Source: Clostridia bacterium (lineage in GTDB: Bacteria > Bacillota > Clostridia > Oscillospirales > Acutalibacteraceae). From it: a stretch of DNA of 64,000 nt. The translations under genes were made by a program, and so were the position numbers. Of this stretch, positions 29,821-47,573 are shown in pieces (the first letter of the stretch is position 1; every line of letters starts with the position of its first letter). Location: positions 6,306 through 70,305 of the forward strand of contig JAFQIG010000056.1 in the NCBI GenBank assembly GCA_017397655.1, written 5' to 3'. The notes under the pieces are model-generated. The model worked only from the letters and a program-made list of their open reading frames with translations, ran no database searches and was not told the origin of the DNA.

Positions 29821-32800
29821 ATTAAATCCCCCCATGGATAGTATTGTCCGATATATGTTTGATCATATTCTTCCTCCGGAGTAGGCATCCATAAAATGTG
29901 AACCACCGAATCGTTTGGTGCAACAACATAGTGATAATATCCGTCAGTTCGATTCCCATCTATATTAGTCACAAATTTATTTGCCAATTCTGTAGTTTTA
30001 AAATCAATCCGTGCAGCCATAATAAGATTAGGTTTTACAAACGGCAACCAATAATATGGATTGGGAGAATATAAAAATCCAGTAAGCCACCAATGACCAT
30101 CTTCATTTGTACTAATATCAAAAAGTTTATCAACGCTGATTTTCCCTTCTGATGTTTTGCCAGATTCGATTAAAAGCGAAAAATTCATAACGAACAATTC
30201 ATCTTCTAAACAATCATATTTGGTAAAAAAAATTAAAAACTTGCTCTTATTTTTATAGAAACCAATTTCTCCACCAAAAGAAATGCCATACGCGCCTTTC
30301 CACAATTCAATTCTCCAATCTTCGCCAGAATAGCTAAACTCGCTAATAAGACAATCAATTCTAATATTAAGCAGTATAGCTGTATCATCAAAAATATCTG
30401 AATATCCAAACGCTTTTTGCCAAGGATCTAAAACAGTTGACCACGGTGTCAGAAACCAATGAATAATATTGTTAGATGGATGATAAAATCCTAAAATACC
30501 TTTTCCGTTTATGTCTGACAATTGACCAGTCTTATCAGTATACAAAATCGGATTATTTTCACAATAAGCAAAAACATTAGATCCGTTTATTCCATTTTGC
30601 TTATCAATAAAAACATCAGTATTCAAAAATCTTCCCCACTGAGGATTATAATACCTACTACCAGTATAATACAGACCAGTCTCTAAATCATAGTAATAAC
30701 CTCTATATGTCGCAGGATTAAAATTAATTGCCAGTATACTTGCAGGAGAGCACTCTTCGGAATATAGATCAAACGACATATTGCCCCAAGCATCATATAA
30801 ATATGAAACCAAAGGCGTACCCTCAGAATTTACTATTTTTATTACGTCTCCTAAAAGGTTTTTTATGTAATAATAGTTTTCATTCAAAAAATTAAAACCA
30901 ATTATGCTACCCGTTTCATCATACATTAAAGAAACAACATATTCTTCATCACCTATTTGAATACTATACCTTAACAATTCACCATCGTCCGACCAAGAGT
31001 ATTTATAAACCCAATCATTTTCATTATCAAAATTAACCTGTTTCATTATACGATAACCATCTTCATTATAACGAAAATCAATATTTTTTTCATTTTCTAC
31101 ATCTCTATAATTCCACAATTCTCGCCCATACCACTCTAAATTTACTGTGCTCTGCATTTGCGCATTATTAAATGTTATTGGATTACCGATAGCATCGTAA
31201 ACAATAGGAGTATTATCAAAGTTTATCAACTTGTCTCGCCAAGCATCATCGTATACATAAAGCGTTGTTTTAATCTCGTTATCAAGTGATTCTGTCGAGA
31301 AAGGAAACTCTGTTTTTGATGCAATATTGCCACCCTTATCATATTGATAAACAATACTTTTCAATAAAAGCACGTTATCTTCTCGAACCAATTGATTTGC
31401 TTCATCATATCTATATCTTGCTAATAATTGTTCTATTTGCTGAGACGTATCATAAATTTCAGTAATATCTCCTCGATTATTATATACGTATCTGTAGGAT
31501 TCAGTCGCTAGAGTTGAATTGCCATTTGAAATTGATGTTGAATATGACTCTACATAAGTACCTGCTGTATTCTCCGTATCATTAAACCCATTTTCTGTTA
31601 TATGTTGAACTATCAAATTGTTATCCTTATCATAAAACGATACTCCTTTTTGTGTTATCCTGTTAAATGGATCTACAACAGCATATCTTTCCGTTTTTCC
31701 ATCAGAATAAATAGTGGTTGTAGATCCCTTTGTTTCACCCGTAACAAAATCATACTCTTCCTCATTACTCGTTGTTATATATGTTTTTCCATAAAGAACA
31801 TCCGTAATAGCACCGCTATCGGGATCCACAGCATATGACTGAATTGTTCCTGATTGATTAGAGAGAACATAGCCGTTTTCTGTATAAGTTTTTGTTTCAC
31901 CCGTTAATACATCTGTTTTTGAAATAATATTGCCCTCTTCATCTCTTAAGTATGTATGCATAGGAGAATAAGTGCCATTTTCATCTTGATATTTAATTTC
32001 TGTTTTCTGTCCATTTATGTCATAACAGAAAACAATCTTGTCACCGTTACCGTAACAAACTTCATCAATATTATCATCTTGATTATAATAGTATTTTACT
32101 AAAGTATAGTCTTCAACTAAATGTTCCTTAGTATTCTCTTCCTCGTCATATAAAATTGAATATAAAGTATCGTTTCTTTCTATAGCATATACCGTACCAT
32201 CTTCTTCACAATAGTATCGTACTTCCATTAGATCATCATTGGTTAAATTTGACACACAAATCTCTTGTTTGGATAAGTTATCATAGCTATCATAAGAAAA
32301 CAACATATATGAATCTTCATATGCAGGATCGTCAGATTCTACATATAAATACGATACCAAATTATTTGAGTAATATGAGCAATCTATAGTATTTCCGTTT
32401 GTATCTGTAAATTCAAGAGGAAACGCTTCTCCGTTGTAAACATACGATTCCGTCATACATTTTGTACCGTCAGATATTGAATAAGAAACCAATGATCCAT
32501 TTTCATCTTCCACCTTGTTTTCTGTTCTTTTGCAAGCAACACAAGCACACACATCTTCACTCTCGCACAAACACTGACAATCTGGACCGTATGCACAATT
32601 TAGCTTGCCACAACCGCAGTAGTTACGATTATCGCACTCAACGCAATCGCACTCGTCTTCAGAAACACAGCTACATGGACAATCCGCTCCAAACATACAG
32701 TTATATCCACAAACACAAAGTGTACTTTTATAATATATTTTCAACACAGAACTGTTTATAGGAGTGTCTTCCATTGAACGTATAATGGATCTTCTCATAA

Positions 32801-34226
32801 TGCTTTCATCCGACAACGATAACATGAAACCATTATTATCATTACCGCTATACCAGCCTTTGATCAAATTATATAAATCAAAAGTATATATTATATCGTT
32901 TTCCTTAACAAACGGCTGACTGTCTTCAATAGGCATCAAAGTATATGCATTAACTTCCTGAGATACTGGTTGATTGTTCCAAGATATTGTTGATGGATTC
33001 CAACTAGAGAAATTTGATAAATCATAAACATTAAGAGAGGTATTTTGTGATGAAAAGAAGTTATAATATCTCTTCTGATAAATTTGAAATTCTGCCCCAG
33101 TTATCTCAAATTCATCCGAAAGTGTCGGAAGCAAAATCTTATAGTATCCTCTTGAACGACTATCCAGATTCTTTCCAACACCCACCTCGTCACTTGTTGA
33201 AAAATTTTGATTTTCCCATAAAGAATCGACCTCAACATCTTGAATTGATGCACTAGATACAGACAGACTAAATGTAGGATTGATAATTACCGGAAACTCT
33301 CTATTATTATCATTTATCCAATTCAGATTCGCTTGTACTTTTAGTAAACTATAATTATCCTCTTCAAGAAAAGTCATAACAACATCACTGCTATATTCGC
33401 CACTCGCATCAAACATATACGGAGAATCTATACTAAACACCATTTCTTTATTCTTCTTTGATAACAAATGGACAGACCCATCCTTTTGCGGCATAGCATA
33501 AAGACCATCCATTTTTAAAATAAATTCAAAGTTATAGCATTCTTTGCGTTCAGAAATAACTATGTATTCTTTAAGCGCTTTCGGTGTTATCATATATTCT
33601 AGATCGGTAGCATAAAAGGCATTATTATACACAACAGCGGATGTTTTATTGCTAACATAGTCCACCGATTTTTTGCTTTTCCATTCTTCAATCTTTTCTT
33701 CAACAAAAGAAAAAGGGGTTGATTTACTTCTATATTTCATTCTATATGATTGTAAATCTTCAATTTCACTTAACCTTGCATTGCTGTAAGAATCACTTTT
33801 ACCGTTGTTACTAACAGCAATGGAAATACTATATTCGTTATGTTTTAACTCAATGGGATTTTTTTGATTTAAGCATTTAGGTATAAGCACTTTTAAAGAA
33901 TTCGACTTATTCATCCAATTTTCTTGAGAATCAACAGATGATACGCTCTTTACCGGTATAAGAGTGTTATCAATCTCTTCCCATTTACCTTGTTTCATAT
34001 AGTGAACTGGTTCACTATATACTTCTGCAACATAAGAACCGTCTTCACAACGAAATTGTTTTACATACTCATCTCTAAAATCAAAAACTTCTCTCACCAA
34101 TTTTTTTGATTTATTTGATGATAAACTTTCTGCAAAAATAGACAAACCAGAAATATTAATCAAAACACAGCACAACAGAACAAAAGCCAGCACTCTTTTT
34201 ATTGCTATATTCAACTTAATTTTCAT
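29817..34226 (-). CDS. Sec-secreted RHS/YD-repeat polymorphic toxin (WapA-like) with a variable C-terminal domain
   Basis: 1469 aa with an N-terminal signal peptide and a DNRLRE-like region (..STISWNNQP..). Many YD repeats, an RHS core end ..YYTGSRYYNPQWGRFLNTD...NNPILYTDKTGQL, then a distinct tail of about 235 aa. GGAGG RBS. Confidence 0.9.
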   Translation of the reverse strand: MKIKLNIAIKRVLAFVLLCCVLINISGLSIFAESLSSNKSKKLVREVFDFRDEYVKQFRCEDGSYVAEVYSEPVHYMKQGKWEEIDNTLIPVKSVSSVDSQENWMNKSNSLKVLIPKCLNQKNPIELKHNEYSISIAVSNNGKSDSYSNARLSEIEDLQSYRMKYRSKSTPFSFVEEKIEEWKSKKSVDYVSNKTSAVVYNNAFYATDLEYMITPKALKEYIVISERKECYNFEFILKMDGLYAMPQKDGSVHLLSKKNKEMVFSIDSPYMFDASGEYSSDVVMTFLEEDNYSLLKVQANLNWINDNNREFPVIINPTFSLSVSSASIQDVEVDSLWENQNFSTSDEVGVGKNLDSRSRGYYKILLPTLSDEFEITGAEFQIYQKRYYNFFSSQNTSLNVYDLSNFSSWNPSTISWNNQPVSQEVNAYTLMPIEDSQPFVKENDIIYTFDLYNLIKGWYSGNDNNGFMLSLSDESIMRRSIIRSMEDTPINSSVLKIYYKSTLCVCGYNCMFGADCPCSCVSEDECDCVECDNRNYCGCGKLNCAYGPDCQCLCESEDVCACVACKRTENKVEDENGSLVSYSISDGTKCMTESYVYNGEAFPLEFTDTNGNTIDCSYYSNNLVSYLYVESDDPAYEDSYMLFSYDSYDNLSKQEICVSNLTNDDLMEVRYYCEEDGTVYAIERNDTLYSILYDEEENTKEHLVEDYTLVKYYYNQDDNIDEVCYGNGDKIVFCYDINGQKTEIKYQDENGTYSPMHTYLRDEEGNIISKTDVLTGETKTYTENGYVLSNQSGTIQSYAVDPDSGAITDVLYGKTYITTSNEEEYDFVTGETKGSTTTIYSDGKTERYAVVDPFNRITQKGVSFYDKDNNLIVQHITENGFNDTENTAGTYVESYSTSISNGNSTLATESYRYVYNNRGDITEIYDTSQQIEQLLARYRYDEANQLVREDNVLLLKSIVYQYDKGGNIASKTEFPFSTESLDNEIKTTLYVYDDAWRDKLINFDNTPIVYDAIGNPITFNNAQMQSTVNLEWYGRELWNYRDVENEKNIDFRYNEDGYRIMKQVNFDNENDWVYKYSWSDDGELLRYSIQIGDEEYVVSLMYDETGSIIGFNFLNENYYYIKNLLGDVIKIVNSEGTPLVSYLYDAWGNMSFDLYSEECSPASILAINFNPATYRGYYYDLETGLYYTGSRYYNPQWGRFLNTDVFIDKQNGINGSNVFAYCENNPILYTDKTGQLSDINGKGILGFYHPSNNIIHWFLTPWSTVLDPWQKAFGYSDIFDDTAILLNIRIDCLISEFSYSGEDWRIELWKGAYGISFGGEIGFYKNKSKFLIFFTKYDCLEDELFVMNFSLLIESGKTSEGKISVDKLFDISTNEDGHWWLTGFLYSPNPYYWLPFVKPNLIMAARIDFKTTELANKFVTNIDGNRTDGYYHYVVAPNDSVVHILWMPTPEEEYDQTYIGQYYPWGDLI

Positions 34227-34333
34227 ACCATTACCTCCTAAAAGTTTTCTTTTATCATCATTCGAAAGTCAAAACGTTCTTAGATATTCTTAAACAGGCA
34301 ATCTTTTTTCATTACAAACACAATTCTTAAAAA

Positions 34334-34756
34334 TCAGTTTTTAGCATTGCTCACAAAGCATAATAAAAACAAACAAAATCCGCTACCATATACCACAGGA
34401 GCCAGAAGAGCGATTACCGGAAATGAAGTCAAAGAAAATATCAGCCTCAGACTCAGCAGCTCAAACGGAATCAGTTTCACGCCGATCAGCACGGCAACTA
34501 TCATTAATGTTGACATCACCGTACATCTCATTTCCGTTGATGCGTGCACTCCGCCGGAATATCTTCGCAGGAGGTTGAAGGCGAGAAAGAACGCCAAGGC
34601 AGCCGTCATACTTTTCAGTATGCAGCCGCAAAGGACACAAACGGTAAGATAATACGCTTGTGATACGAGATTAAAGAGGACAACATATTCCATAACATCC
34701 TCTTCAATCCCGTTCAGTTTAATTTTCCCCGATAGAAACCGAGCTATACGACTCAT
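34334..34756 (-). pseudogene. agrB: 3'-truncated agrB copy (first ~123 aa conserved, then unrelated 17-aa tail)
   Basis: 140-aa ORF identical to the full-length AgrB up to ..LLAPV except for one inserted Val and two substitutions. It lacks the C-terminal TM segments. Confidence 0.75.
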
Positions 34757-34766
34757 TCGTCTCTCA
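34394..34766. repeat. Direct repeat copy 2 (agrB 5' region; partner at 28276-28644)
   Basis: See copy 1. Confidence 0.9.
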
Positions 34767-34878
34767 TGCTGCGGGGCATCTCGGGCTGATACATCCAGAT
34801 AGATGTTGCCGAGTTAATCTGGCTCTTTGACAAAAGATTCAATGCAGCCTTAAGTGCCTTAATAATCAAGCCGATCAT
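34753..34878 (-). CDS. agrD: AgrD-like autoinducing peptide precursor (41 aa, Cys-free)
   Basis: Not in the track because it is under 60 aa. Translation by eye gives MIGLIIKALKAALNLLSKSQINSATSIWMYQPEMPRSMRDE. GAGGAG RBS 6 nt upstream; stop overlaps the agrB ATG (ATGA). Amphipathic N-terminus plus a QPE.P.S.RDE tail as in clostridial AgrD. Confidence 0.75.
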   Translation of the reverse strand: MIGLIIKALKAALNLLSKSQINSATSIWMYQPEMPRSMRDE

Positions 34879-34940
34879 ACTTTCACTCCTCTCTTTTTTT
34901 CGTCACGATACACCACTTTTACAAAAAAATCAATGCAGAA

Positions 34941-34969
34941 TGCAAAATCGTTCGAAAAACGTGCAAAAT
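34941..34969. promoter_or_regulatory. Candidate LytTR-regulator binding repeats upstream of agrD
   Basis: TGCAAAAT at 34941 and again at 34962 (21-bp periodicity), immediately upstream of a possible TTGATT-17-TATCGT promoter for agrD. Confidence 0.3.
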
Positions 34970-35100
34970 TGTACTTTTTCCCAATTACAATTAATTTTTT
35001 CTAAAAAATATTGATAATTCCAAATTTCATTGATATAATAAATTGAATTTTGTTCTAAAGCGATTTTTGAAATGTTACCATTAATAGGGGGTAATTAATT

Positions 35101-35439
35101 TTGTATGAAAAAAGCAATGCAGTTGTTATCGGTCTTCGGATAATGCAACGAAGAAAGGCGCTGGGAATAACGCAGGCTGAGCTTGCCGAAACCATCGGCG
35201 TATGTGACAATCAGATATCAAATATCGAAAACGGAAAATGTTTTTTGCGTATGAGCAGCTTTCTGAAAATATGCGATGCACTGGACTGCACCACAGACTA
35301 TCTCTGCTCCGGCATGGTCAAAGATGATCTGCAGGATAACCTTGTCGATCTTTTATCTTTATTATCTGCCGAGGAGCAAAAAACCGTATGGAAATTGCTT
35401 GACGCTTATATTCACCGTGAGGATAACACTCTTGTATAA
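35101..35439 (+). CDS. XRE-family HTH transcriptional regulator
   Basis: IGLRIMQRRKALGITQAELAETIGVCDNQISNIENGK classic HTH_3. TTG start; an ATG at 35143 is the alternative. Confidence 0.75.
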   Translation: MYEKSNAVVIGLRIMQRRKALGITQAELAETIGVCDNQISNIENGKCFLRMSSFLKICDALDCTTDYLCSGMVKDDLQDNLVDLLSLLSAEEQKTVWKLLDAYIHREDNTLV

Positions 35440-35471
35440 CTGATTTATAATTTGTTTCATTTTTTATTCGG

Positions 35472-36176
35472 GTGATCAATTTGAAAATTCTGATTTGTGA
35501 TGACGAAAAAGTATACGTTGATACCATCAGCACAAATATATACTATTATTTTGACAACAAACAAATCCCATATTCCGTAAGCACTTTCACAGACAGTTCC
35601 GAGATCTTCAGAAACAACGAAAAATATGACATAGCTTTTCTGGATATTGAAATGAAGCCGAAAAACGGTATTGAGATAGCGAGTGAATTAAAAAGAATCA
35701 ATCCGCATACGATCATCTTTATCATCACTTCACACAACAAATATCTGGACGACGCTATGGATCTTCAGGTTTTCCGCTATATTCAAAAGCCGATTAACAT
35801 AGGTCGGATGTTTGCAGGTCTTGACAAAGCGCTTGAAAGGCTGAAAAATACATCTGTTCAGTTTTATCTTTCGGAAAAACCGTCATATGTCCGCGTTTGT
35901 TCCGATGACATAATCTATATAGAGATCGTCAACCGCAAAACAAATGTTGTTACCTTTGACAACACATATGTTTCTGCACTTTCTATCAAGGAATGGATGG
36001 AAAAGCTTCCGAAGGGCTCTTTTTATCCCGTTCATACCAGCTTTATTGTCAATCTCAAACACATAACGGCATATTCCCGCGAATCGGTTGTTATGGACAA
36101 TCGGTTTACCATACCGATTTCTAATAAAAATAAAACTGAATTCAGAACATTCTTTTTACATTTCAACAGAAAATAA
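35472..36176 (+). CDS. LytTR-family response regulator (AgrA-like)
   Basis: Receiver domain (KILICDDE...DIAFLDIEM) plus a C-terminal LytTR DNA-binding domain (..IIYIEIVNRKTNVVT...HTSFIVNLKHI). Confidence 0.88.
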   Translation: MINLKILICDDEKVYVDTISTNIYYYFDNKQIPYSVSTFTDSSEIFRNNEKYDIAFLDIEMKPKNGIEIASELKRINPHTIIFIITSHNKYLDDAMDLQVFRYIQKPINIGRMFAGLDKALERLKNTSVQFYLSEKPSYVRVCSDDIIYIEIVNRKTNVVTFDNTYVSALSIKEWMEKLPKGSFYPVHTSFIVNLKHITAYSRESVVMDNRFTIPISNKNKTEFRTFFLHFNRK

Positions 36177-36219
36177 AATACAATAACCGAAACTTCTTTT
36201 GAAAGACGTGATATGATCA

Positions 36220-37506
36220 ATGACTCAACATCTGGTTTCTGTCGGTGCATTTATTGTTGAATGGTGGATCGTCTTTTTATACTTTAACAACATTTTTGAG
36301 AACAAAAGGCCGAAACACACAACAGCGCTTGCCGGTCTCGGATTATACGCTGTCCCGACAATAGTATTCATTCTTTTCGGAATACCGGTTGTCAACACCT
36401 TATTGCTTATTGTTATAAACTGTATTTATGCATTCTGCTTTTACAAAGCTTCGCTGATAAAAAGCATTGTTGCATCCGCTACATACATAGCGCTGATGAT
36501 GGCATCCGAGTTTATTGTAATGATTCTTCTGTCACTGATTACAAACGGCGACATCAACCAATACATCTCATCGGAACCCGTCTATGCGCTTTCCACTACA
36601 ATATCAAAAACGTTGCTTTTGTTCCTGAGTATTTTTGTTGCACGGTTTCTTTTCTCACGCAAAAGCGCATCTACGGACAAAACTCCTGCGTTTCTTTTTA
36701 TCTTTCCGCTGTCAGCCATATTTATTGACCTATCGTTCTGGAGAATCGCTTCGACAATCGAGCTTGAATCCGAAACAAAGATCATCATAAGTGCCGGAAG
36801 CGTGGTTCTTCTTATATCCGTCCTTTTCACCTATGTGTTCTACGGCAATGCCATGCGCAAAAACAGCGAGCTTTTTCAGCTGCAGAGCGCTTTTGAAAGA
36901 AGCGAAACCGAGAGGAAATACTATTCCATCCTTGACAAGCAGAACGAAGAACTGCGTTCGTTTATACACGATGAAAAAAATCATCTGACTGCAATCAAGG
37001 TAATGTCTGACGATCCTGAGATACATAATTATATTGACAGCATCATAGGTGATCTGAACCGGTCCACACCTCTCGGAAATACAAAGAACAAAACGCTTGA
37101 TCTGATTATCGGGAAGTACAACTATCTGTGTAACATAAAACAAATCAACTTTACATATTCAACACCCACTGCAAATCTTTTGTTTATAAACGACAGTGAC
37201 CTCGTCTCTATGATGAGTAATATTCTCGACAATGCTGTTGAAGCATCGGAAAATGCCGACGATAAATGGATTGATATGTATATAGAGCGTGTCGGCGGTG
37301 TCACTCTGTTCACCTGCGATAATTCGTGTGCCACAGCTCCGATAATCCTTAACGGCACTCTCAAATCCTCAAAAGAAAACAAAAAGCTTCACGGTATCGG
37401 AATGAAAAGTATTGCCCGTACCTGTGAAAAGTACAATGCTCAGCTTGAATGGAATTACAATGAAGACAACAAAGTTTTCTCCGTCAATATTCTGTTCAGA
37501 GAATAA
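36220..37506 (+). CDS. AgrC-like (HPK10) membrane sensor histidine kinase
   Basis: About six N-terminal TM segments; H-box FIHDEKNHLTAIK; GHKL ATPase N-box ILDNAVEAS and G-box HGIGMKSI. Confidence 0.8.
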   Translation: MTQHLVSVGAFIVEWWIVFLYFNNIFENKRPKHTTALAGLGLYAVPTIVFILFGIPVVNTLLLIVINCIYAFCFYKASLIKSIVASATYIALMMASEFIVMILLSLITNGDINQYISSEPVYALSTTISKTLLLFLSIFVARFLFSRKSASTDKTPAFLFIFPLSAIFIDLSFWRIASTIELESETKIIISAGSVVLLISVLFTYVFYGNAMRKNSELFQLQSAFERSETERKYYSILDKQNEELRSFIHDEKNHLTAIKVMSDDPEIHNYIDSIIGDLNRSTPLGNTKNKTLDLIIGKYNYLCNIKQINFTYSTPTANLLFINDSDLVSMMSNILDNAVEASENADDKWIDMYIERVGGVTLFTCDNSCATAPIILNGTLKSSKENKKLHGIGMKSIARTCEKYNAQLEWNYNEDNKVFSVNILFRE

Positions 37507-37522
37507 GGCTGTATATAAAATG

Positions 37523-37552
37523 AACCACCTTCGCCAAAAAACGAAGGTGGTT
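37523..37552 (+). terminator. Intrinsic terminator after the kinase gene
   Basis: AACCACCUUCG-8 nt-CGAAGGUGGUU followed by UUGCUUG. Confidence 0.7.
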
Positions 37553-37689
37553 TTGCTTGTCGAAAAAATATTTTTTCGGCAAGCAGGGAGACTTCGAGAA
37601 AGGTGACGGGATGGCGTGTTCTTTGCCCCGAAGCTGTACAAAGGTACTGCGAGAGGGCAAAAACACGACAAACGCACATTAATAATTAC

Positions 37690-37800
37690 CAAAAGATTCT
37701 TCTTCCTTCGCCTCAGAATGACACGATCGGTTTTCCTCTTACAAATTCCGATTGCTTTTTTATAACAATGTGCGTGTTCCCGGTGCATTTATCGACAGTC
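37690..37800 (-). repeat. Interspersed non-coding element of ~110 nt, copy A (partner 48811-48925 on +)
   Basis: Minus strand GATAAATGCACCGGGAACACGCACATTGTTATAAA...TGTCATTCTGAGGCGAAGGAAGAAGAATCTT, compared with plus strand GATAAAGGCAACGGGAACACGCACATTATTACAAA...TGTCATCCTGAAGCGAAGAATCTT. Confidence 0.7.
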
Positions 37801-37802
37801 TG

Positions 37803-37831
37803 AACCACCTTCGCCAAAAGCGAAGGTGGTT
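37803..37831 (-). terminator. Hairpin/terminator after hsdR, a near-duplicate of the 37523 hairpin
   Basis: Same 11-bp arms AACCACCTTCG/CGAAGGTGGTT with a 7-nt loop, 6 nt after the hsdR stop. Confidence 0.65.
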
Positions 37832-37836
37832 CTGTT

Positions 37837-40800
37837 TCAGATCAGACCCGAATACTTCTCAAAGAATTTCTGCAATCTTTCAAGAACAGCTTTCTTTTTC
37901 TGTGCGCGGTTATTTCCGGCACCACCGAAAAGTGACATGGCAGGAAGAATTTTATCAATATCTGTTCCTGTCGTTTTTATTCCACCGTCACAAAAAGCAT
38001 TTTCAATAAACACTTTTGTTTCTTCCGGCTTTAATCTGTGTTCCGCGATAACCTCGTCAATCTCTTTTTCTTTTTGTTCACCGACAAACTTTTTCCAGTC
38101 ATTCCTGACATCGGTATTGACATTGACGGTATCAATAAAAGCTTCGATAAGCTCTTTCTTGGAACGAAGCTCAATGCTCGAACGGATAGCCTTGTCAATG
38201 GAACCGATGATCTCTTTATCCGTACAGTTTGAGTCATGATACTTTGCAACAAGCATAAGGATGTAATCGATATTAACCTCAACCTGCTTTACAAGTTCAA
38301 GTTCAAAAACAACATCATCACGTATACTCTCTTTTTCAACTTTGATTGTAAAATCATCCTTGATATCAAGATACAGGCTTGTATAATCCTGAACATCAAA
38401 GGGAGAAAGAATCTCGTTACCGATAAACTTGTCAAAAACCGAAAGGATATTGCGAAGCCTCAAGATATTACCGAAAAGAACAACGAAGTCCTTCTGGTTT
38501 TTCTCACCGCATATTTCCCTGCCGAGAGGATATTTCTGCAAAAGCTCGGCAATTCTTTCTTCATAGCCCTTTACGTGTTTGCCGTTTTCATCATAGCCGA
38601 AGTAATAATCCTCAAAGGATTTGAGAAGCACCAGACCGCTTGCATTTTTATCACCGAACAAAGAAACGGCTTCGTTGGTTTCCTGTTCAAGGTCACGGAA
38701 GCATACGATGTTACCGAACGACTTGACGGCATTCAGAATTCTGTTGGTACGGGAGAACGCCTGAATAAGACCGTGCTGTCTGAGATTTTTATCGACCCAG
38801 AGGGTATTAAGCGTTGTTGCATCAAAGCCTGTCAGGAACATATTTACAACGATCAGAATATCAACTTCACGCTCTTTGACCTTCAGTGACAAGTCTTTAT
38901 AATAGTCCTGAAAGCCTTTTGAGGATGTGTCGTAATTCGTTTTAAACAGCTTGTTATAGTCATCAATAGCGTTATCGAGGAACTCACGAGAGGTGACATC
39001 AAGCATATCGGTGTCAAAGCTTTCATCGGCAAGCAAACCGTTGGTGCCGTCCTCTTCGTTTGCACCGTAGGAGAATATTGTTGCGATTTTCAAGTCACGC
39101 TGTTTTTCTTCAAGCTGTTTTTTGAACTCATAATAATACTTTTTGGCTACAGGAATAGAACTGACGGCAAAGATCGAGTTAAAGCCGTTAAGACGCTTAC
39201 CCTTTGCCATATAGAACTGATTACGTTTTGTATGGCGGTCAAAGTTGTCAATGATATAGCTTACAATACCCTTGATGCGTTCAGGTGACTGCATGGCTTC
39301 TTCCGTGTCGATCGCATTGACCTGTCTGTCCCTTATGCCGTCTTTTCTTTTGAGTGTATCAACAAAGTCGATTCTGAACGGCAGAACATTTTTATCATTG
39401 ATAGCATCGACTATGGTATATGTATGGAGCTTTTGTCCGAAAGCCTGCTCGGTTGTTTTGAGATCAGGTATACCGCCCGATGAGGCATTTTCCGAAAAAA
39501 TCGGTGTGCCCGTAAAACCGAAGATGTGATAATTCTTAAAAAACTTATTAAACTTAATTACCTTTTCACCCTTTTTAACGGTACCTCCGACAATCCTTGT
39601 ATGCATTTCGCCGAATTGGCTGCGGTGGCATTCGTCAAAAATAAGTACAACGTGCTTATCTCTGATCGGGTGATCAGGATTCTTTGTAATAAAAATATCA
39701 AGCTTCTGAATTGTTGTAACGATAATTCTTGCCGAATCATCTTCAAGCTGCTTCTGAAGAACAGCAGTGTTTCTGTTACCGTTTGCAGCACCTTTCTCAA
39801 AGCGGTCATATTCTTTGATCGTCTGATAGTCAAGGTCTTTACGGTCAACGACAAACAGAACCTTGTCGATAAACGGAAGTGCCGTTGCAAGCTGAGCAGT
39901 CTTGAACGATGTGAGCGTTTTGCCCGAGCCCGTTGTGTGCCAGATGTAACCGCCTGCATCAATAGTGCCGGTCTGTTTGTAGTTGGTTGACGTGATTATC
40001 TTGCTGATGATCTTCTCCGTTGCAACGATCTGATACGGACGCATTACAAGTAAAAGACTCTCGCTTGTGAACACACAGTATTTTGTCAGGATACTGAGAA
40101 TCGTATGCTTTGCAAAGAATGTTTTTGTAAAGTCAACAAGATCGGGAATTGTTCTGTTATCGGCATCTGCCCAGAAGGATGTAAACTCAAACGAGTTGCT
40201 TGTTTTCTTTTTGTTGCGGGAAGATGTTCTTTCTTTTACGTGCAGATCACGTGTGGTGTTGGAGTAATATTTTGTGTGCGTACCGTTGGAAATGACGAAA
40301 AGCTGAATATATTCATAAAGTCCGCAGCCTGCCCAGAAGGACTCACGCTGATAGCGGTCAATCTGATTGAACGCTTCTCTGAGTGGTCTGCCACGGCGTT
40401 TAAGTTCAACATGAATAAGCGGCAGACCGTTGACAAGAATTGTCACATCATAACGGTTGTCGTGAGTGCCGCTGTCTTCGGTATATTGATTGATAACCTG
40501 TAAAAAGTTGTTGTGAATATTCTTTTTGTCAATCAGATAAATATTTTTTGAAGTGCCGTCATCACGCTTTAAAACCTGAATGTAATCTTCCTGAATCCTG
40601 CGTGTTTTCTCAACAATATGTTCATTGGGATTGGCGATCTGATTCTCAAAAAAGTATTTCCACTCTTTATCGGAAAACTTATAGTTGTTAAGCTTTTCAA
40701 TCTGAACACGAAGGTTTTCAATCAAAGCAGACTGACAGCTTATATCAAGATACTGATAGCCTTGCTCTGTCAGCATTTTTATAAACGCTTTTTCAAGCTC

Positions 40801-40902
40801 GGCTTCGCTCTGATACGCATCGGAACGGGCGCTCTGAGGCTCATATTTACTGACAACAGTAGCCTCGCTTGTGGATAAAACCATGTTGTACTGACTCATC
40901 AC
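37837..40902 (-). CDS. hsdR: Type I restriction enzyme R subunit HsdR
   Basis: 1021 aa. SF2 helicase motifs (TGSGKT, DECHRS) and an N-terminal PD-(D/E)xK-type region (DVTILVNGLPLIHVELK). Confidence 0.93.
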   Translation of the reverse strand: MMSQYNMVLSTSEATVVSKYEPQSARSDAYQSEAELEKAFIKMLTEQGYQYLDISCQSALIENLRVQIEKLNNYKFSDKEWKYFFENQIANPNEHIVEKTRRIQEDYIQVLKRDDGTSKNIYLIDKKNIHNNFLQVINQYTEDSGTHDNRYDVTILVNGLPLIHVELKRRGRPLREAFNQIDRYQRESFWAGCGLYEYIQLFVISNGTHTKYYSNTTRDLHVKERTSSRNKKKTSNSFEFTSFWADADNRTIPDLVDFTKTFFAKHTILSILTKYCVFTSESLLLVMRPYQIVATEKIISKIITSTNYKQTGTIDAGGYIWHTTGSGKTLTSFKTAQLATALPFIDKVLFVVDRKDLDYQTIKEYDRFEKGAANGNRNTAVLQKQLEDDSARIIVTTIQKLDIFITKNPDHPIRDKHVVLIFDECHRSQFGEMHTRIVGGTVKKGEKVIKFNKFFKNYHIFGFTGTPIFSENASSGGIPDLKTTEQAFGQKLHTYTIVDAINDKNVLPFRIDFVDTLKRKDGIRDRQVNAIDTEEAMQSPERIKGIVSYIIDNFDRHTKRNQFYMAKGKRLNGFNSIFAVSSIPVAKKYYYEFKKQLEEKQRDLKIATIFSYGANEEDGTNGLLADESFDTDMLDVTSREFLDNAIDDYNKLFKTNYDTSSKGFQDYYKDLSLKVKEREVDILIVVNMFLTGFDATTLNTLWVDKNLRQHGLIQAFSRTNRILNAVKSFGNIVCFRDLEQETNEAVSLFGDKNASGLVLLKSFEDYYFGYDENGKHVKGYEERIAELLQKYPLGREICGEKNQKDFVVLFGNILRLRNILSVFDKFIGNEILSPFDVQDYTSLYLDIKDDFTIKVEKESIRDDVVFELELVKQVEVNIDYILMLVAKYHDSNCTDKEIIGSIDKAIRSSIELRSKKELIEAFIDTVNVNTDVRNDWKKFVGEQKEKEIDEVIAEHRLKPEETKVFIENAFCDGGIKTTGTDIDKILPAMSLFGGAGNNRAQKKKAVLERLQKFFEKYSGLI

Positions 40903-40912
40903 TTCGCTCCTC

Positions 40913-41467
40913 CTATCTTTTCATATTGCTTCCCAAATCTTTTCTCATCTCTGTATAAAGGGCTGCTATATGTTGTTTGAAAATTTCAGTGCTCGGGATA
41001 TTTTCTCTTTTGAAGTTTTCCACACGACTCTCAAAACATAAAATATCCATATCAGTTACATGGCAAATCTCATATTCCTCGCCGTACTCATTAAACTCAG
41101 TCTCAAAAAAACCCGGATTATTCTGCGGATCGTTCTTGATGTAAAAGCTTCTATATTCCTCATAGTTTTTAATTACAAATTCGTAGAAAGCCTTGAAAGC
41201 CTCTTCTGTTTTAGTCGAAGAGAGAAGCTTCATTTTGGGTTTAAAATCCAGTAAAACTTGTATGTAGCTACTATCGTATGTTTTAAACCTATCATGCAGT
41301 AAATGTTCTGCTTCATCATAAAACTTAAAATACAACTCTGCCCTTTTTTCCAAAACAAGCTTTTTGACTTCGTTTTTATGTGTTATCGATAAAGTTATAA
41401 GTGCTGTAATAATTGATGTAATAATTGACACCACACCAGTTAGTATAATAATATAAAAATCGTTCAT
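40913..41467 (-). CDS. Hypothetical single-pass membrane protein embedded between hsdS and hsdR
   Basis: 184 aa with an N-terminal TM (IIILTGVVSIITSIITALITLSI). ATGA overlap with the hsdS stop. No family recognised. Confidence 0.6.
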   Translation of the reverse strand: MNDFYIIILTGVVSIITSIITALITLSITHKNEVKKLVLEKRAELYFKFYDEAEHLLHDRFKTYDSSYIQVLLDFKPKMKLLSSTKTEEAFKAFYEFVIKNYEEYRSFYIKNDPQNNPGFFETEFNEYGEEYEICHVTDMDILCFESRVENFKRENIPSTEIFKQHIAALYTEMRKDLGSNMKR

Positions 41468-42672
41468 ACGTTTGTCACCCCAAATGTCAACAACATATTC
41501 CTATAATGCTCATACTGCTTCTGCCTTGCTTCGATTTCGGCAGGAAGACCGATATTAAGATCGGAACAGATAGCATCAAAATTATCAAGAACTTCTACAA
41601 GACGATCCTGAACATCACGAGGTGGTAAAGGAATTTCAATACTCTCTATTGATGGGACATTTGAATGAACAACCTTGCTTTTAACTTTTCCTTTGCTCTT
41701 TTGCTGTCTTGCCAAAGAAGTTGACAAAACATAAGAGAGATACTTGGGGTTCTGATTATGTTTCAGAACAACTATATCACCACCGGCAAGACATTTTTCG
41801 TTGCCTACATAAGCAGTTGACTTCGCAATATCTTCAACGCTTTCACCGGTGATTGCAAAAAGAATATCTCCATACTCAAAATATTTGGGACTGTTCACAT
41901 ATTCGAGTTTGGTGTGTGAATAGCATTTGTCAAACCATATTCCGTATTTGGTATAAATTTCACCGTATCTGACACAAGGAATCCCTTCTTCGGTTACTTC
42001 ATCTCTCTTAATTCCTGCACCACGATAAATATCGGTTGCTATATCACCAAGTTTAACTCTGTGTATTTCTCCGATTCTGTCAAACGAAAGTAAATCATCA
42101 CGATAATACTCATACTGCTTTTTACGAGCTGTAAGCTCTGCTGTGAGCTCTGCTGTGAGCTCTGCTGTGAGCTCTGTAAAATTGTCCAGAATACGGACAA
42201 TTTCATTCTGCACCTCCATGGGCGGTACAGGGATTAAAAAGTCTTCTGTAACATGCAGAGAAATCTGTGGAAGAGAACCCATTCCTGAGGCAGCATCTCG
42301 GAATATTTGAATATTATTCTTCAAAACATAGTACAAAAATTTAACGGAGACTTTATCATCTGTTGTATAAGCCCACATTTCATTTTTAAATGTAAAAGGC
42401 TTGTCGTAATATACAACATCTATCACTCCACGCGACTGAACTAAAACAGCAGGGACTCTTGTAATATTAGCGTTTGGAATATCATCTTCAAAAGCATTAA
42501 TAACAGTTTTTCCACCGGCAAATACTTTTATATCACCATCAGGGTTATCAATCTCTTTCATTTTTCCTGCAGTAATAGGAGTTCCTTTTAATCGAGTGTA
42601 GACATCTTTTACCTTTCTATACTCTACACCATTGGGACAAAGTTCCTCTATCAGTTGTTCAAGTTTTGTCAT
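41464..42672 (-). CDS. hsdS: Type I R-M specificity subunit HsdS (type IC-like central region)
   Basis: Two TRDs separated by ...FTELTAELTAELTAELTARKKQYEYYRDDLL, with C-terminal ...EIEARQKQYEHYRNMLLTF. The start is taken at [18 protein letters not shown]. Confidence 0.9.
   Translation of the reverse strand: MTKLEQLIEELCPNGVEYRKVKDVYTRLKGTPITAGKMKEIDNPDGDIKVFAGGKTVINAFEDDIPNANITRVPAVLVQSRGVIDVVYYDKPFTFKNEMWAYTTDDKVSVKFLYYVLKNNIQIFRDAASGMGSLPQISLHVTEDFLIPVPPMEVQNEIVRILDNFTELTAELTAELTAELTARKKQYEYYRDDLLSFDRIGEIHRVKLGDIATDIYRGAGIKRDEVTEEGIPCVRYGEIYTKYGIWFDKCYSHTKLEYVNSPKYFEYGDILFAITGESVEDIAKSTAYVGNEKCLAGGDIVVLKHNQNPKYLSYVLSTSLARQQKSKGKVKSKVVHSNVPSIESIEIPLPPRDVQDRLVEVLDNFDAICSDLNIGLPAEIEARQKQYEHYRNMLLTFGVTNV
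42128..42175 (-). repeat. 12-bp tandem repeat x4 inside hsdS encoding (TAEL)4
   Basis: Plus strand gctgtaagctct, then gctgtgagctct three times (42128-42175). Confidence 0.95.
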
Positions 42673-43525
42673 TGATTCTATCCCTCGCACATTTTAATGC
42701 TTCAAAACTCTTATTGGAAAATAAAAGCCGAGAACAGTTTTTGATTATTTCCTTATTGTATGAAGCAATATTCTTGATCTGATATATATCAAAAAACGCT
42801 AAGTCATTTTTCAAAATATCTTTGTGAAATATTTCAACTGCAACAGTAGGTGAAAGCGGTACAAAATATGTCACTTCCGGTGATACTGCTGAAATGGGTT
42901 CATTTGTTTTTTTACTATGGTCAATTTTTATCACAGGATTGTCGGATGTAATAAACGGAAGTTCTGTATGATTAATTATGAAAATCCAATGCCAATCACT
43001 AAATAGATTTGCATAGAAATTGCTCATACCAAAATCTAAAATTTCAGATGTGTGGATGCGCTGAAAATCCGTTTTTGAATATTGCGGTATATCCGCATAA
43101 GGAAAACCATCTTTTATCTGTTGATAAATATCTTTATAATAATTTCTAAATGCCTCTGTTCTTGTTATTAACAGTGCAAATTGAGCAGAAAGTTGCTCTT
43201 TTTCTATCTGTAGAGAAGAGCAATCTCGATGCTGAGGATCAATAATTATCGTGTCAAGCAAAACACGTAATAATGTGGCAAGTTCTCCCTCTATTTTATT
43301 TCCAAAAAATTTTTCAATAATTTTCTTTTGTTCGCCAAGTTCTTCGATATCATAAAAACGTTTGATTACTGGAAACTTTCCCACTTTTGAGCTGTCACAT
43401 TTATTTTCCTGCACATTGTAGAAATAAAGCATTGAATCACGACCTTTATTCCCTTCAATGCCGAAATTTGCCAAATAGGCTACCGGAACAGTATGCGAAT
43501 GTTCTACTGTGTTTTTATTTCCCAT
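42659..43525 (-). CDS. Hypothetical protein, DUF4238-like, embedded between hsdM and hsdS
   Basis: About 288 aa. N-terminal [13 protein letters not shown] resembles the H..VPQFYL..F start of DUF4238, recalled from memory and not searched. Overlaps both neighbours. Confidence 0.5.
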
Positions 43526-45083
43526 TTTCGATCTCCGCAATTATTTTTGCAATCTCGTCACGGAGCGCCTGCTCACGTGCTACGATTTCTTCGATCTCTG
43601 CATTCAGCTTTACGATGTCGACCTTTTCTCTTATATCCTCTGCTTCGACGTAGGTTGAAACCGAAAGATTATAATCATTCTCTTTGATTTCATCGTATGA
43701 AACAAGTCGGGCAAAGTGAGGAGCATCCTCACGGCTTGTAAATTCCGATACGATCTTTTCGATATTTGCATCGGTGAGCTTGTTGTTGTTTGTGACTTTG
43801 ACAAATTCGGCTGATGCATCAATAAACAGCGTTTTATTATCCGCCTTTGACTTTTTAAGCACCATGATGCACGTTGCTATTGATGTGCCGTAGAAAAGAT
43901 TTGACGGCAGCTGAATAATACAGTCAATAAAGTTGTTGTCAATAAGATATTTGCGGATTTTCTGCTCTGCTCCGCCACGGTACATAATTCCGGGGAAGCA
44001 GACAATTGATGCCACGCCGTTTGTCGCAAGCCAGGAAAGCGAATGCATTATAAATGCCATGTCCGCTTTTGACTTCGGTGCCAACACGCCTGCCGGGGCA
44101 AACCGAGGGTCATTGATAAGCACGGGGTTATCCTCGCCCTCCCATTTGATTGAGTAGGGCGGATTTGAAACGATTACCTCAAACGGCTCGTCATCCCAAT
44201 GCTGCGGTGACAAAAGCGTATCCTCGTTTGCTATATCAAATTTATCATAGCCGATATCGTGAAGAAACATATTGATTCGGCAAAGGTTATATGTAGTGAT
44301 GTTGATCTCCTGTCCGTAAAAGCCCTGTCGCACCTTATCTTTTCCGAGTATCTTTGATGCCTTAAGCAGTAACGAGCCCGATCCGCATGCAGGGTCATAT
44401 ATCTTATTAATTTCTGTTTTGCCGACTATTGCAAGCTTTGTCAGAAGTTCGGAAACCTCCTGCGGAGTAAAGAACTCTCCGCCGCTTTTGCCTGCGTTTC
44501 CTGCATACATTCCCATAAGATATTCGTATGCATCACCAAAGGCATCTATCGTGTTATCCTGATAGTTGCCGAGATTCATATTGCCGATACCGTCAAGAAG
44601 CTTGACAAGCTTTTCGTTGCGCTTGCCGACCGTTGCACCAAGCTTATTGGAGTTGACATCAATATCATCAAACAAGCCTGCAAAGTCATCCTCGCTGAAA
44701 CTGCCCTTTGCAGATTCTTCTATATGTCGGAACACGTTCTCAAGTGTTTCATTGAGGTTTTCATCGCGAGAAGCTCTTTTTCTGACATTGCAGAAAAGCT
44801 CTGACGGCAATATGAAAAAGCCCTTTGATTCAACAAGTGTTTCTCTTGCCGTTTCCGCATATTCATCCGACATAAGTGCATATTCAAAACCGATATTGCC
44901 TGCATCATGCTCCAGCTTATTAATATAGTTTGTCAGATTCTCCGATATGTAACGATAAAACATTATTCCGAGTACATAACTTTTAAAATCCCATCCGTCT
45001 ACACTTCCGCGCAGTTCATCAGCAATGCCCCAAATCGTTCTGTGAAGCTCGTCTCTCTCCTGCTCCCTTTTGATATCCGCCAT
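43515..45083 (-). CDS. hsdM: Type I R-M N6-adenine DNA methyltransferase HsdM
   Basis: HsdM N-terminal domain; [10 protein letters not shown] (motif I); NPPYS (motif IV). Confidence 0.95.
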
Positions 45084-45146
45084 ATCTCTTCTCCTTCTTT
45101 ATGGTGAGTTAAGTGTATCACCTTTGTTGTACGATATACCGTACAA

Positions 45147-46547
45147 TTATTCCTCAAGCATTTTTTTGAATTTTATTTTTAATCGGACAAGCGGCTCCCA
45201 TCCGCTGTATTCGTTTACGATATCGGGGCGATCTTTCCACTCATATTCCTTGCCGAGCTCGTAATTCAACCATTCCCTTACAACCTTTACAAAGTAGAAG
45301 TCCTTACTCTTTACATATCCGTAGGTACCCGTTTCCTGATCGTAGCCGTATACCGTTATCAGCTTTGCATTACTAAGCAGGCTCTCTTCAAAGTATTTTC
45401 TGCACGTTTCCTCATCGTCATAATGTGCATATCCCTCGGCGTTGGCATACTCGTTTCTGCCGCGCTTTGCAAGCTGAAGATACAGCTCATAAAGGTCATA
45501 CGGACACGTTTTCGGACTCATCGTCCAGCCGGGTGTGCAATACTCGTTGATACACACATCAACCGGAGGTCTTGTTGTACTGTACTCCCCTGTATGCGAT
45601 GACAGCGACACTATGTGCGATATGATCTTGTGTCTTTCTATACCTGCATCATAAAACAGCTTGCACGTAAACTTTATGTAATCGGCAATTACCGAGTACA
45701 GCAGCTTTTTGGTATAATCCCTTACCGACATTCTGTTTTTTGCCGCTTCCTTCCTGAGCGACTTTTCGGTATATCCCATATTGTGAAGTGCGTGGTATCC
45801 GTACTGCGCCTTTTCAAAATCCTCTAAAGATGCATAATCCTTATCGCTGTAATCGGGAATCTGCGTCTCCCATCCCGTGTTTATTCCCGCAAAAAGGTAT
45901 GCTTTGTTCTCCTCTTTGAGTCTTGTATAATTCTCTGTAAGCGGCTCTATAAATCCTTTTGTTACCTGATTTTTATACCATTCAAGATATTTTTCTGAAT
46001 TGAAGCACGGGAAGCCTCCCGCCGTTGCAAAAGGTACTCCGCTCCAATCGCAATGCCATCTCGGCAACATTCCGTATGACTCTCCGCCCCATTTTTCGCC
46101 CTCCTTCGGAAAGGCTATCCATTCGCACATTTCGGGATCGTTATAAAACTTGTTGCCGTCTTTTGTAACTGCTCCGTCACCGAAATAGTCCGTGTAATTG
46201 GTACAGTCATCCATCTGGAAATATACCGGAACATTATACTTTTCGGCAAGAGCGAAAACATGATTGACCTCTTCTCTCATCTGCTCCACAGACTGTGTCA
46301 GACACATAGGTCCTACCACTCCGAAGGCATACATTCGCTTTGAATCTGCATCAATCTCTCCGTGAAGCTCCACCATCTGACTGACATACGGTTCAAGATT
46401 CATATAATGAACATTGGTTACCATAAATACTACGTATTGCGGATCATCCTCACCCGTTATATCCGGCGTTATATCCGTGCCGAACAACGTCAATAATGCT
46501 GTTATCAGCGCAATAATAAAGCTGATTATTCTCTTTTTCAGTGACAT
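45147..46547 (-). CDS. Hypothetical membrane-anchored/secreted protein
   Basis: The start at MSLKKRIISFIIALITALLTLFG gives a signal/anchor sequence. No family recognised. Confidence 0.55.
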   Translation of the reverse strand: MSLKKRIISFIIALITALLTLFGTDITPDITGEDDPQYVVFMVTNVHYMNLEPYVSQMVELHGEIDADSKRMYAFGVVGPMCLTQSVEQMREEVNHVFALAEKYNVPVYFQMDDCTNYTDYFGDGAVTKDGNKFYNDPEMCEWIAFPKEGEKWGGESYGMLPRWHCDWSGVPFATAGGFPCFNSEKYLEWYKNQVTKGFIEPLTENYTRLKEENKAYLFAGINTGWETQIPDYSDKDYASLEDFEKAQYGYHALHNMGYTEKSLRKEAAKNRMSVRDYTKKLLYSVIADYIKFTCKLFYDAGIERHKIISHIVSLSSHTGEYSTTRPPVDVCINEYCTPGWTMSPKTCPYDLYELYLQLAKRGRNEYANAEGYAHYDDEETCRKYFEESLLSNAKLITVYGYDQETGTYGYVKSKDFYFVKVVREWLNYELGKEYEWKDRPDIVNEYSGWEPLVRLKIKFKKMLEE

Positions 46548-46670
46548 ATAAACACCCCTTTTGTATAAATATATCACAAAATTTTTGTTTAATCAATAAT
46601 GTTTCTTTTTCCGCTTTTTCTTGACTTTTGTTTTATTTGCAAATAAAATAGTATCAAGGAGTGATTTTGA

Positions 46671-47573
46671 ATGAAGACAAGAATTATTGCTTTTCTGATG
46701 GGAATTGTTTTGTCGTTCTGCAATCTGTTCGGTATAGATTATAAGGGTACGGTTGTTGCCGAAACCTTTACAAATTACATATATCAGGATGCCTCTTACG
46801 GTGATCACGAACGTCAGAAGCTTGATCTGTATATCCCGAAATTACGTGGCGATGAGTTGGGACTTGTCCTTTACATTCACGGTGGAGGCTGGGTTGCAGG
46901 CGATAAGGAAGGTTACCGAAACGATATCCGTGAGATGGCAAAAATGGGCTATGCTGCCGCCTGCATCAATTATCGCTACCTCTCGTACGATGTTTCTTTT
47001 GATGATATTCTGAATGACATTGAAGCTGCTCTTTCGTTTATCAGAACTACAGGCAAAGAGAAAAACATCTCAATTGACAAGGTTCTTCTTACAGGCTATT
47101 CCGCAGGCGGTCATCTCTCTATGCTTTACGCATACGCAAGAAAGGATTCTTCACCCGTTGAGCCTGTTGCGGTTGTTGATTACTGCGGTCCTACTGATCT
47201 TTACGATCCGTCTTTTTATAACGAATCGTCTACCGATGAACTGAAAAATCTTTTCCTGATGTTCGCATCATACTCTTACGGTCAGGAGCTGACACTTGAC
47301 AACGCTTATCTTGCCGAGCAAGTTCTGAAAAAAGCTTCTCCGATTTATTATGTTGATGAAAATACCGTTCCTACTGTCAAAAATCACGGCATGGCTGATA
47401 CGCTGGTTCCCTACTCAAATGCTTTATCTCTTGAAGAAGCTTTTGTAAGTCACGGTGTAACTCATATTCTGAACACTTTCCCGAACTCGGGTCACGGTCT
47501 CGAAAATGATCCGTATCACAAAAAGCTCTCCGATCAATACTTTGAGGATTATGTAAAAACATATCTCGGCTGA
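46671..47573 (+). CDS. Secreted alpha/beta-hydrolase (esterase/lipase family)
   Basis: HGGGW oxyanion motif, GYSAGGH nucleophile elbow, C-terminal ..GHG.. His region, and a signal peptide. Confidence 0.8.
   Translation: MKTRIIAFLMGIVLSFCNLFGIDYKGTVVAETFTNYIYQDASYGDHERQKLDLYIPKLRGDELGLVLYIHGGGWVAGDKEGYRNDIREMAKMGYAAACINYRYLSYDVSFDDILNDIEAALSFIRTTGKEKNISIDKVLLTGYSAGGHLSMLYAYARKDSSPVEPVAVVDYCGPTDLYDPSFYNESSTDELKNLFLMFASYSYGQELTLDNAYLAEQVLKKASPIYYVDENTVPTVKNHGMADTLVPYSNALSLEEAFVSHGVTHILNTFPNSGHGLENDPYHKKLSDQYFEDYVKTYLG

Follow-up and report, generated by a model that had tools for sequence, protein, structure and literature searches.

PrrC is a soluble protein of about 400 amino acids (aa) in which an ABC-type ATPase is fused to an anticodon nuclease. 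Its gene lies between hsdS and hsdR of the type IC restriction-modification (R-M) locus EcoprrI (PMC12707154). In Vibrio cholerae the type I R-M cluster of VPI-2 contains TgvAB, a GmrSD-like type IV restriction pair (PMC11411939), and in the account given in that source the rlo genes of Campylobacter jejuni (Miller et al. 2005) likewise interrupt a type I R-M operon. Embedded genes of type I R-M, BREX (bacteriophage exclusion), DISARM (defence island system associated with restriction-modification) and Hma systems are largely defence genes, which has been called "guilt-by-embedding" (Payne et al. 2024, 10.1101/2024.01.29.577857). The PDC candidates of that study are included in the PADLOC v2.0.0 library (PMC10855318). 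Here we describe a type I R-M operon with two embedded genes in a stretch of 64,000 nucleotides (nt) from a Clostridia bacterium (contig JAFQIG010000056.1, positions 6,306 to 70,305), the whole of which is referred to as the window. A DUF4238 gene lies between hsdM and hsdS, and a gene for a small membrane protein, here called X, lies between hsdS and hsdR. Our results suggest that these two junctions are slots with exchangeable contents and that X represents an uncatalogued family of probable defence genes.

Like prrC, the X gene has hsdS on one side and hsdR on the other in a type IC operon, and it is predicted to be co-expressed with the R-M genes, a likeness of position only. Unlike PrrC and RloC, X is a 184-aa membrane protein, and ABC-type ATPase and anticodon-nuclease domains were found in neither insert with Pfam, NCBIfam or PADLOC. 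TgvAB and the rlo genes resemble the inserts in being unrelated genes that interrupt a functional type I R-M operon, and they act independently of HsdR; neither insert, however, has sequence or domain similarity to TgvAB. With the guilt-by-embedding genes X shares its same-strand location between subunit genes, its presence in both type I R-M and BREX systems and the existence of non-embedded family members, but it matches no PADLOC v2.0.0 model and is uncatalogued as far as that library shows. X also resembles the effectors with one or two transmembrane helices (1TM, 2TM) of CBASS (cyclic-oligonucleotide-based anti-phage signalling system) type in being short, in having an N-terminal membrane helix and in being encoded within a defence operon. 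In contrast to those effectors it has no cyclic-nucleotide sensor domain, the operon has no signalling enzyme, and PADLOC matches are weak and limited to single family members.

A single DUF4238 gene from the P2 prophage hotspot gives strong T7 resistance in E. coli, its molecular function being unknown (Rousset et al. 2022, PMC9122126). Rst_DUF4238 of DefenseFinder is listed among defence systems of unknown mechanism (10.1101/2024.10.26.620412), and a TIR-DUF4238 protein is an active defence (PMC11350192). Like Rst_DUF4238 and DUF4238-Pers, the window protein is a single-domain PF14022 protein of about 290 aa that scores above the cut-off. Unlike the DUF4238 gene of the P2 hotspot, it belongs to a Clostridia-type genome from gut or rumen, where it lies inside an R-M operon, and it has diverged beyond the PADLOC model. 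Nesting of defence cargo in type I R-M operons is an established phenomenon and DUF4238 is already known; the new part is the X family.

Results

Related operons were collected through homologues of each insert and then mapped by tblastn. The combination seen in the window, a DUF4238 gene of the window type in the hsdM-hsdS slot and X in the hsdS-hsdR slot, is also present in L026. Elsewhere X is accompanied in the hsdM-hsdS slot by a DUF4238 gene of a lineage barely alignable with that of the window by BLASTP (L001), by PIN_12 and an 88-aa open reading frame (ORF; L008:5723-7041) or by nothing (L039). In L002-4 and L021-23, which also have X and are known from tblastn mapping or partial contigs only, the slot, where present, holds a DUF4238-sized gene or a gap with no tblastn match to the window DUF4238. 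DUF4238 of the window type is found in the hsdM-hsdS slot also when X is missing. In such operons the hsdS-hsdR slot is empty (L009/10), encodes an unrelated 174-aa protein (L012:9027-9551) or contains a second DUF4238 gene and a gene for a 241-aa protein, together with DUF4160 in all but L014 (L013-15).

L012 is the operon closest to that of the window, with HsdM 86.7% and HsdR 80.6% identical. The 174-aa protein in its slot belongs to no Pfam family. Two membrane helices are predicted at the N-terminus of this protein, which would be a second, analogous small membrane protein in the hsdS-hsdR slot. We found no kinship of X with this protein or with the 241-aa slot protein of L013. The slot contents of L013 lie at L013:9102-11161, and the slot is similarly filled in L014 and L015. 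The second DUF4238 is very diverged, being 22% identical to the first, and its 241-aa neighbour has no known family. The same three loci have an SduA (Shedu) gene after hsdR and a WYL regulator gene before hsdM, which together with the inserts appear to form a compact defence island.

The GC content of both inserts is about 10 points lower than that of hsdM and hsdR (Table 1), and both appear to be foreign and separately acquired. When X and HsdR identities were compared pairwise over eight operons, the correlation was r = 0.27. Specifically, L001 and L039 have HsdR proteins that are 82% identical and X proteins that are 44% identical. X alleles seem to have been shuffled relative to HsdR. Because the slot contents assort independently in related operons, the two inserts are unlikely to be a pair, and both inter-subunit junctions of these type IC operons appear to behave as exchangeable cargo slots. 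In two copies of the operon on mobilisable elements hsdR is damaged. The L002 copy is cut down to 444 aa and borders directly on a VapE-like gene (L002:8570-10914), and the L003 copy is split into ORFs of 357 and 627 aa (L003:2104-5205). X and the methylation genes are intact in both loci despite the damage to hsdR.

In type IC operons X is found directly 5' of hsdR (window, L001-4, L005-6, L008, L021-23, L026-27, L028-29 and L039). The proteins are 36-75% identical to X of the window, and the gaps between X and hsdR are 12-22 nt. On two contigs from different samples (L030 and L042) X is part of a type 1 BREX system, where pglX and pglZ enclose it in the order brxC-pglX-X-pglZ-brxL. BREX-borne X is 33% identical to X of the window (tblastn E = 1e-13, profile E = 4e-36). 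X is also present alone on a Tn916-like element (L031-33), flanked by helix-turn-helix (HTH)/Xis-type genes and genes for a resolvase, a relaxase and an integrase. Moreover, the X domain is fused behind a multi-pass DUF2085 membrane domain in four longer proteins (P0175, P0174, P0194 and P0181). The gene for P0175 (L025:3729-4694) adjoins genes for zinc-ribbon/tetratricopeptide-repeat proteins and a resolvase, outside an R-M context. The context sample for the distant members is small. X was counted as embedded on the same strand within complete type IC operons (window, L001, L005, L008, L026, L028 and L039) and BREX operons (L030 and L042); neither Pfam nor PHROGs assigns it a function, it was not classed as a mobility or housekeeping protein, and it has non-embedded homologues (L031-33 and L025). 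The contexts outside R-M, together with the shuffling relative to HsdR, indicate that X is mobile.

A word-indexed search gave 34 close relatives of X, all of about 183 aa and without a Pfam domain. The full profile search yielded 231 clusters at 50% identity; 132 of these have E <= 1e-10, and almost all of the proteins are 165-195 aa long. The family is rare: X is present in 1-2 of 399 genomes of the class and in 5 of 401 genomes of the phylum, and besides the window's own genome only G689 has a full-length match in this sampling. The close subfamily is found at 3 loci among about 185,000 species genomes. Neither the single protein nor 58 family members gave a consistent match in Pfam, NCBIfam, PADLOC or PHROGs. 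In PADLOC-DB v2.0.0, including the HEC and PDC models, no model was matched by more than one of the 58 members, and the best match of window X, to the 2TM effector model PDLC00690 (E = 0.0055), is weak and confined to the membrane helix. A search of PDB chain sequences with the X profile gave no relative.

An N-terminal hydrophobic helix is present in 57 of the 58 diverse members, with 0-2 lysine or arginine residues before it and 2-6 after it. Since the positive charges cluster after the helix (positive-inside rule), the predicted topology is N-out/C-in with a cytoplasmic C-terminal domain. Small residues (G, A, S, T) occupy helix positions 10/11, 14, 17/18, 21/22, 25/26 and 29, a spacing that corresponds to a helical period of 90-100 degrees. 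As they recur every 3-4 positions, the stripe points to helix-helix packing and not to a passive anchor. The AlphaFold2 (AF2) model of X is confident (Table 1) and consists of a long helix (residues 3-58) followed by a helical bundle and a beta hairpin (residues 121-135). Conserved residues of the soluble part are R42, Y46, K76, L81, S84, P114 and M174-R175-x-D177-L-G. A Foldseek search against BFVD gave a single borderline match, A0A8S5THW7, a 184-aa uncharacterised protein of Siphoviridae sp. ct6Ob18 (template modelling score 0.56 both ways, 14% identity, E = 0.037). This protein may be a remote phage-borne relative of X, as judged from the model. X as a DNA mimic was considered and dropped; its soluble part is merely mildly acidic (median pI 5.2, net charge about -5.5).

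The match of the window DUF4238 protein to PF14022 is full-length (102.9 bits against a cut-off of 27; residues 11-272 on profile positions 3-279 of 281). It does not match the PADLOC model DUF4238-Pers (PDLC03000) at E <= 0.1, while 14 of 21 aligned relatives do (best E 5.9e-12). Invariant in the family alignment are H11, V13, P14, Y17, L18, F21, E71, E79, R122, N173, T193-S194-D195-x-P197, N257 and S270, with two conserved motifs, the N-terminal H-x-V-P-x-x-Y-L-x-x-F and T-S-D-x-P. The pattern of invariant residues is compatible with an enzyme. A search of PDB chain sequences with the family profile gave nothing. DUF4238 relatives with 49-92% identity occupy the same hsdM-hsdS slot of type IC operons, and in two related genomes DUF4238 is not beside type I genes. 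As judged by its E. coli homologue, DUF4238 can be taken as an already validated stand-alone anti-phage family.

The operon consists of five ORFs on the same strand, as seen from the ORF list and family searches (Table 1). HsdM, HsdS and HsdR are all present and intact, without internal stop codons. The stop codon of hsdM overlaps the start of the DUF4238 gene by 11 nt, the stop of the DUF4238 gene overlaps the ATG of hsdS by 14 nt, hsdS and X have a common ATGA, and X and hsdR are separated by 10-13 nt that include AGGAGG. The Shine-Dalgarno-like motif of each gene sits within the 3' end of the preceding gene. In a pattern scan the operon itself had no strong terminator on the minus strand, and the single strong one, a hairpin downstream of hsdR, probably marks its end. 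There is no excess of promoter-like sites inside the operon, 20 being found against 20.8 expected from shuffled sequence, and an Rfam scan of positions 36000-47000 gave zero matches, so no structured RNA was found in the operon. The equivalent junctions of related operons vary between an overlap of 4 nt and a gap of 35 nt. Short gene overlaps are commonplace in bacterial operons. The overlaps indicate co-transcription of the cargo with the R-M genes, and translational coupling across the junctions is probable. They do not imply obligatory functional dependence, because short overlaps are ordinary in operons and the junctions vary among relatives. The 63 nt that separate hsdM from the gene upstream of it contain a palindrome, TGTACG-N6-CGTACA. 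Mobile relatives of the operon have an HTH gene adjoining hsdM upstream, which the window lacks; the palindrome could be a leftover operator, or a chance occurrence.

Table 1. Positions of the operon genes, associated elements and neighbouring genes in the window
Feature	Position	Strand	Evidence and properties
hsdM	43515-45083	minus	522 aa; TIGR00497 E = 1.3e-223, 743 bits; N6_Mtase, HsdM_N; GC 43.7%
DUF4238 gene, hsdM-hsdS slot	42659-43525	minus	288 aa; PF14022 E = 2.8e-29; GC 32.5%
hsdS, two target-recognition domains	41464-42672 (alternative GTG start 42690)	minus	Methylase_S x2; PADLOC Specificity_I E = 9.8e-94
Tandem repeat (12-nt unit, 4.1 copies) that gives (TAEL)3 in the conserved central part of HsdS	42128-42176	minus	tandem repeat finder
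X, single-pass membrane protein, hsdS-hsdR slot	40913-41467	minus	184 aa; AF2 predicted local distance difference test (pLDDT) 89.8; GC 32.4%
Segment encoding the N-terminal membrane helix of X (residues 5-29, approximately)	41381-41455	minus	Kyte-Doolittle 19-aa mean 2.62
hsdR, type IC	37837-40902 (or 40899)	minus	about 1020 aa; HSDR_N, SWI2_SNF2, T1R_D3-like, EcoR124_C; PADLOC REase_I 1145 bits; TIGR00348 559 bits; GC 41.2%
Terminator-like hairpin, 13-bp stem then T run, between hsdR and convergent histidine-kinase gene	37523-37552	minus	pattern scan
Palindrome upstream of hsdM	45128-45145
Low-GC stretch	28071-37506		GC 32-37%
Possible AgrB-like membrane protein	28071-28655		read from sequence
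Surface protein of leucine-rich repeat type	28753-29835		read from sequence
RHS/YD-repeat polymorphic-toxin-like protein	29817-34226		1469 aa; read from sequence
LytTR response regulator and GHKL histidine kinase	35472-37506		read from sequence

The original prediction had described this gene order with overlapping or near-touching junctions (11 nt, 14 nt, ATGA and about 10 nt), and the sequence confirms it. Both extra ORFs prove to be genuine genes, and the type I R-M operon in which they are nested is intact. The proposed membrane anchoring of the 184-aa protein agrees with the helix found throughout the family. Of the obligatory co-expression that had been suggested, co-transcription and probable coupling stand, but dependence does not, as the junctions vary from -4 to +35 nt in relatives. 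Neither insert had been assigned a function; this holds for X, which is unmatched in the libraries, but not for DUF4238, a known anti-phage family (PMC9122126). In the PADLOC search that had been recommended, hsdS and hsdR were matched, the window DUF4238 gene and X had no significant model match, and two thirds of the DUF4238 relatives (the 14 of 21 above) matched. As to conservation of the five-gene order, which was also to be analysed, both slots are variable among related operons.

The locus can be assigned from its sequence to the type IC (EcoR124-like) R-M operons, because HsdR matches HSDR_N, SWI2_SNF2, a T1R_D3-like domain and EcoR124_C. The last of these, PF12008, is matched by residues 758-1017 with E = 5.6e-64. 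In related hsdS genes (L001-L023) there are 2 or 3 TAEL copies, and even near-identical loci differ, L013 having 3 copies and L014 and L015 having 2. EcoR124I has 2 TAEL copies and EcoR124II has 3, and this switch in repeat number alters the length of the recognition-site spacer between the two. Since the number of copies varies and EcoR124I/II provide a precedent, the specificity of these type IC systems probably varies through repeat slippage.

Next to the operon lies the low-GC stretch of the window. The RHS/YD-repeat and leucine-rich repeat genes in it are flanked on one side by the possible AgrB-like membrane protein gene and on the other by the LytTR response regulator and GHKL histidine kinase genes (Table 1). 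These assignments, read from the sequences, are putative.

Discussion

We consider it rather probable that the two inserts are autonomous, separately acquired defence cargo, co-expressed with the R-M genes as an extra layer of defence, and that X acts at the membrane. A defence role had been suggested for the inserts before and is the most plausible one, X being found within both type I R-M and BREX systems. Both subunit-gene junctions would have served as landing slots for separately acquired low-GC cargo, which would be transcribed, and probably translationally coupled, with the R-M genes. X would have a short N-terminus outside the cell, a membrane helix and, on the cytoplasmic side, a helical domain of some 150 aa. 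The conserved small-residue face of the helix may pack against other X copies or against a membrane partner. At the membrane X could be a self-associating, membrane-damaging abortive-infection effector or an entry-exclusion protein. In either case we infer that X would provide a second protective layer against phages that escape restriction.

Several observations weigh against autonomous defence cargo. The X-carrying type IC operons are mutually related (HsdM 76-87% identical); because of this relatedness the R-M cases of X are not all independent acquisitions, and the X genes in R-M operons may descend from one or a few insertions and not from many. X is always just 5' of hsdR in R-M operons or of pglZ in BREX, and this constant position could reflect a functional tie to the restriction/effector half of the systems. 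No catalytic or known effector motif was seen in X. X was absent from the phage, plasmid and IMG/VR collections searched: tblastn with X and two distant members gave no match in the phage and plasmid collections, and scans of IMG/VR with three X queries gave none. The DUF4238 protein of the window falls short of the PADLOC DUF4238-Pers model even at E = 0.1, and its AF2 model is of moderate confidence (pLDDT 71.5). In the fold comparison that the original prediction had called for, Foldseek searches of the AF2 models of X and of the DUF4238 protein against PDB both gave no match at E <= 0.001.

The constant position of X would be accounted for if X, instead of being autonomous cargo, were an accessory dedicated to methylation-based defences, which we regard as unlikely. 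X could sense inhibition of R-M or BREX, as PrrC does for EcoprrI, and then kill or arrest the cell via the membrane. Alternatively, X could hold HsdR or PglZ at the membrane, or delay restriction after transfer to a new host. The narrow range of X-hsdR gaps in spite of the divergence of X, the equivalent methyltransferase/effector boundary in BREX (pglX-X-pglZ) and the repeated landing of divergent X alleles in the same slot are in favour of such a role, as is the location of many carrier operons on mobilisable elements (TnpV, serine recombinase, MobA). The T7 DNA mimic Ocr, moreover, reportedly inhibits both type I R-M and BREX (Isaev et al. 2020). The prrC gene has the same position as X in the type IC EcoprrI locus (PMC12707154). 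However, HsdR does not seem to need X, because in L012, the operon with the closest HsdR (80.6%), the slot protein is unrelated and in L009/10 the slot is empty. X and HsdR do not co-diverge (r = 0.27), X stands alone on the Tn916-like element and also occurs fused to DUF2085 away from any R-M genes, and it lacks an ATPase, nuclease or other sensor domain such as those in PrrC or PARIS (phage anti-restriction-induced system). We see only a slim chance for an extended version of the accessory role, in which the X family is a membrane-anchored guard of methylation-based immunity generally, placed at the methyltransferase/effector boundary (hsdS-hsdR and pglX-pglZ). Such a guard would dock on R-M or BREX complexes at the inner membrane face. 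When an anti-restriction protein (a DNA mimic of Ocr/ArdA type) disables the complex, X would be released, would oligomerise through its small-residue face and would collapse the membrane potential. A DNA mimic is a plausible trigger because Ocr is said to inhibit both type I R-M and BREX. If this were true, X would be a minimal, enzyme-free counterpart of PrrC or PARIS.

The original prediction also raised a composite or new accessory module. An obligate five-gene composite with DUF4238 and X as a sensor/effector pair is very improbable, even if the genes are tightly overlapped and the five-gene order recurs in L001-L004, L021-23 (partly mapped) and L026, also where X is only 45% identical. 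The DUF4238 genes of those loci belong to at least two barely alignable lineages. Moreover, X is seen where the hsdM-hsdS slot holds PIN_12 or is empty, within BREX and on its own, X is missing from some operons with DUF4238 (L009/10, L012, L013-15), and a lone DUF4238 gene is active in E. coli (PMC9122126). Since the inserts assort independently, the composite is largely refuted, and the nesting of the two genes follows an established pattern (PrrC/EcoprrI, TgvAB, Payne et al. 2024). It is also quite improbable that X is not a defence gene at all but a membrane protein of mobile elements, serving maintenance, surface exclusion or stress response and hitch-hiking in a recombination-prone slot. 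That X is found alone on an integrative element and also near a resolvase gene, that many carrier operons are on mobilisable elements and that X matches no defence model would fit a hitch-hiker. On the other hand, the majority of the sampled X contexts are inside defence operons of two types, embedded genes are mostly neither mobility nor housekeeping genes (10.1101/2024.01.29.577857), and the plasmid and phage collections searched gave no match to X. Autonomous, separately acquired cargo is the explanation that we prefer.

Conclusions

X is a compact (about 180 aa), membrane-anchored and uncatalogued protein that is embedded in two mechanistically related immune systems, which makes it a cheap and well-defined candidate. 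If active, X would extend the defence repertoire by a membrane effector of very small size, encoded in a single gene. X also bears on the question whether small membrane proteins of the hsdS-hsdR slot work by themselves or guard the restriction complex. This question is sharper because the closest related operon carries a second, unrelated membrane protein in the same slot.

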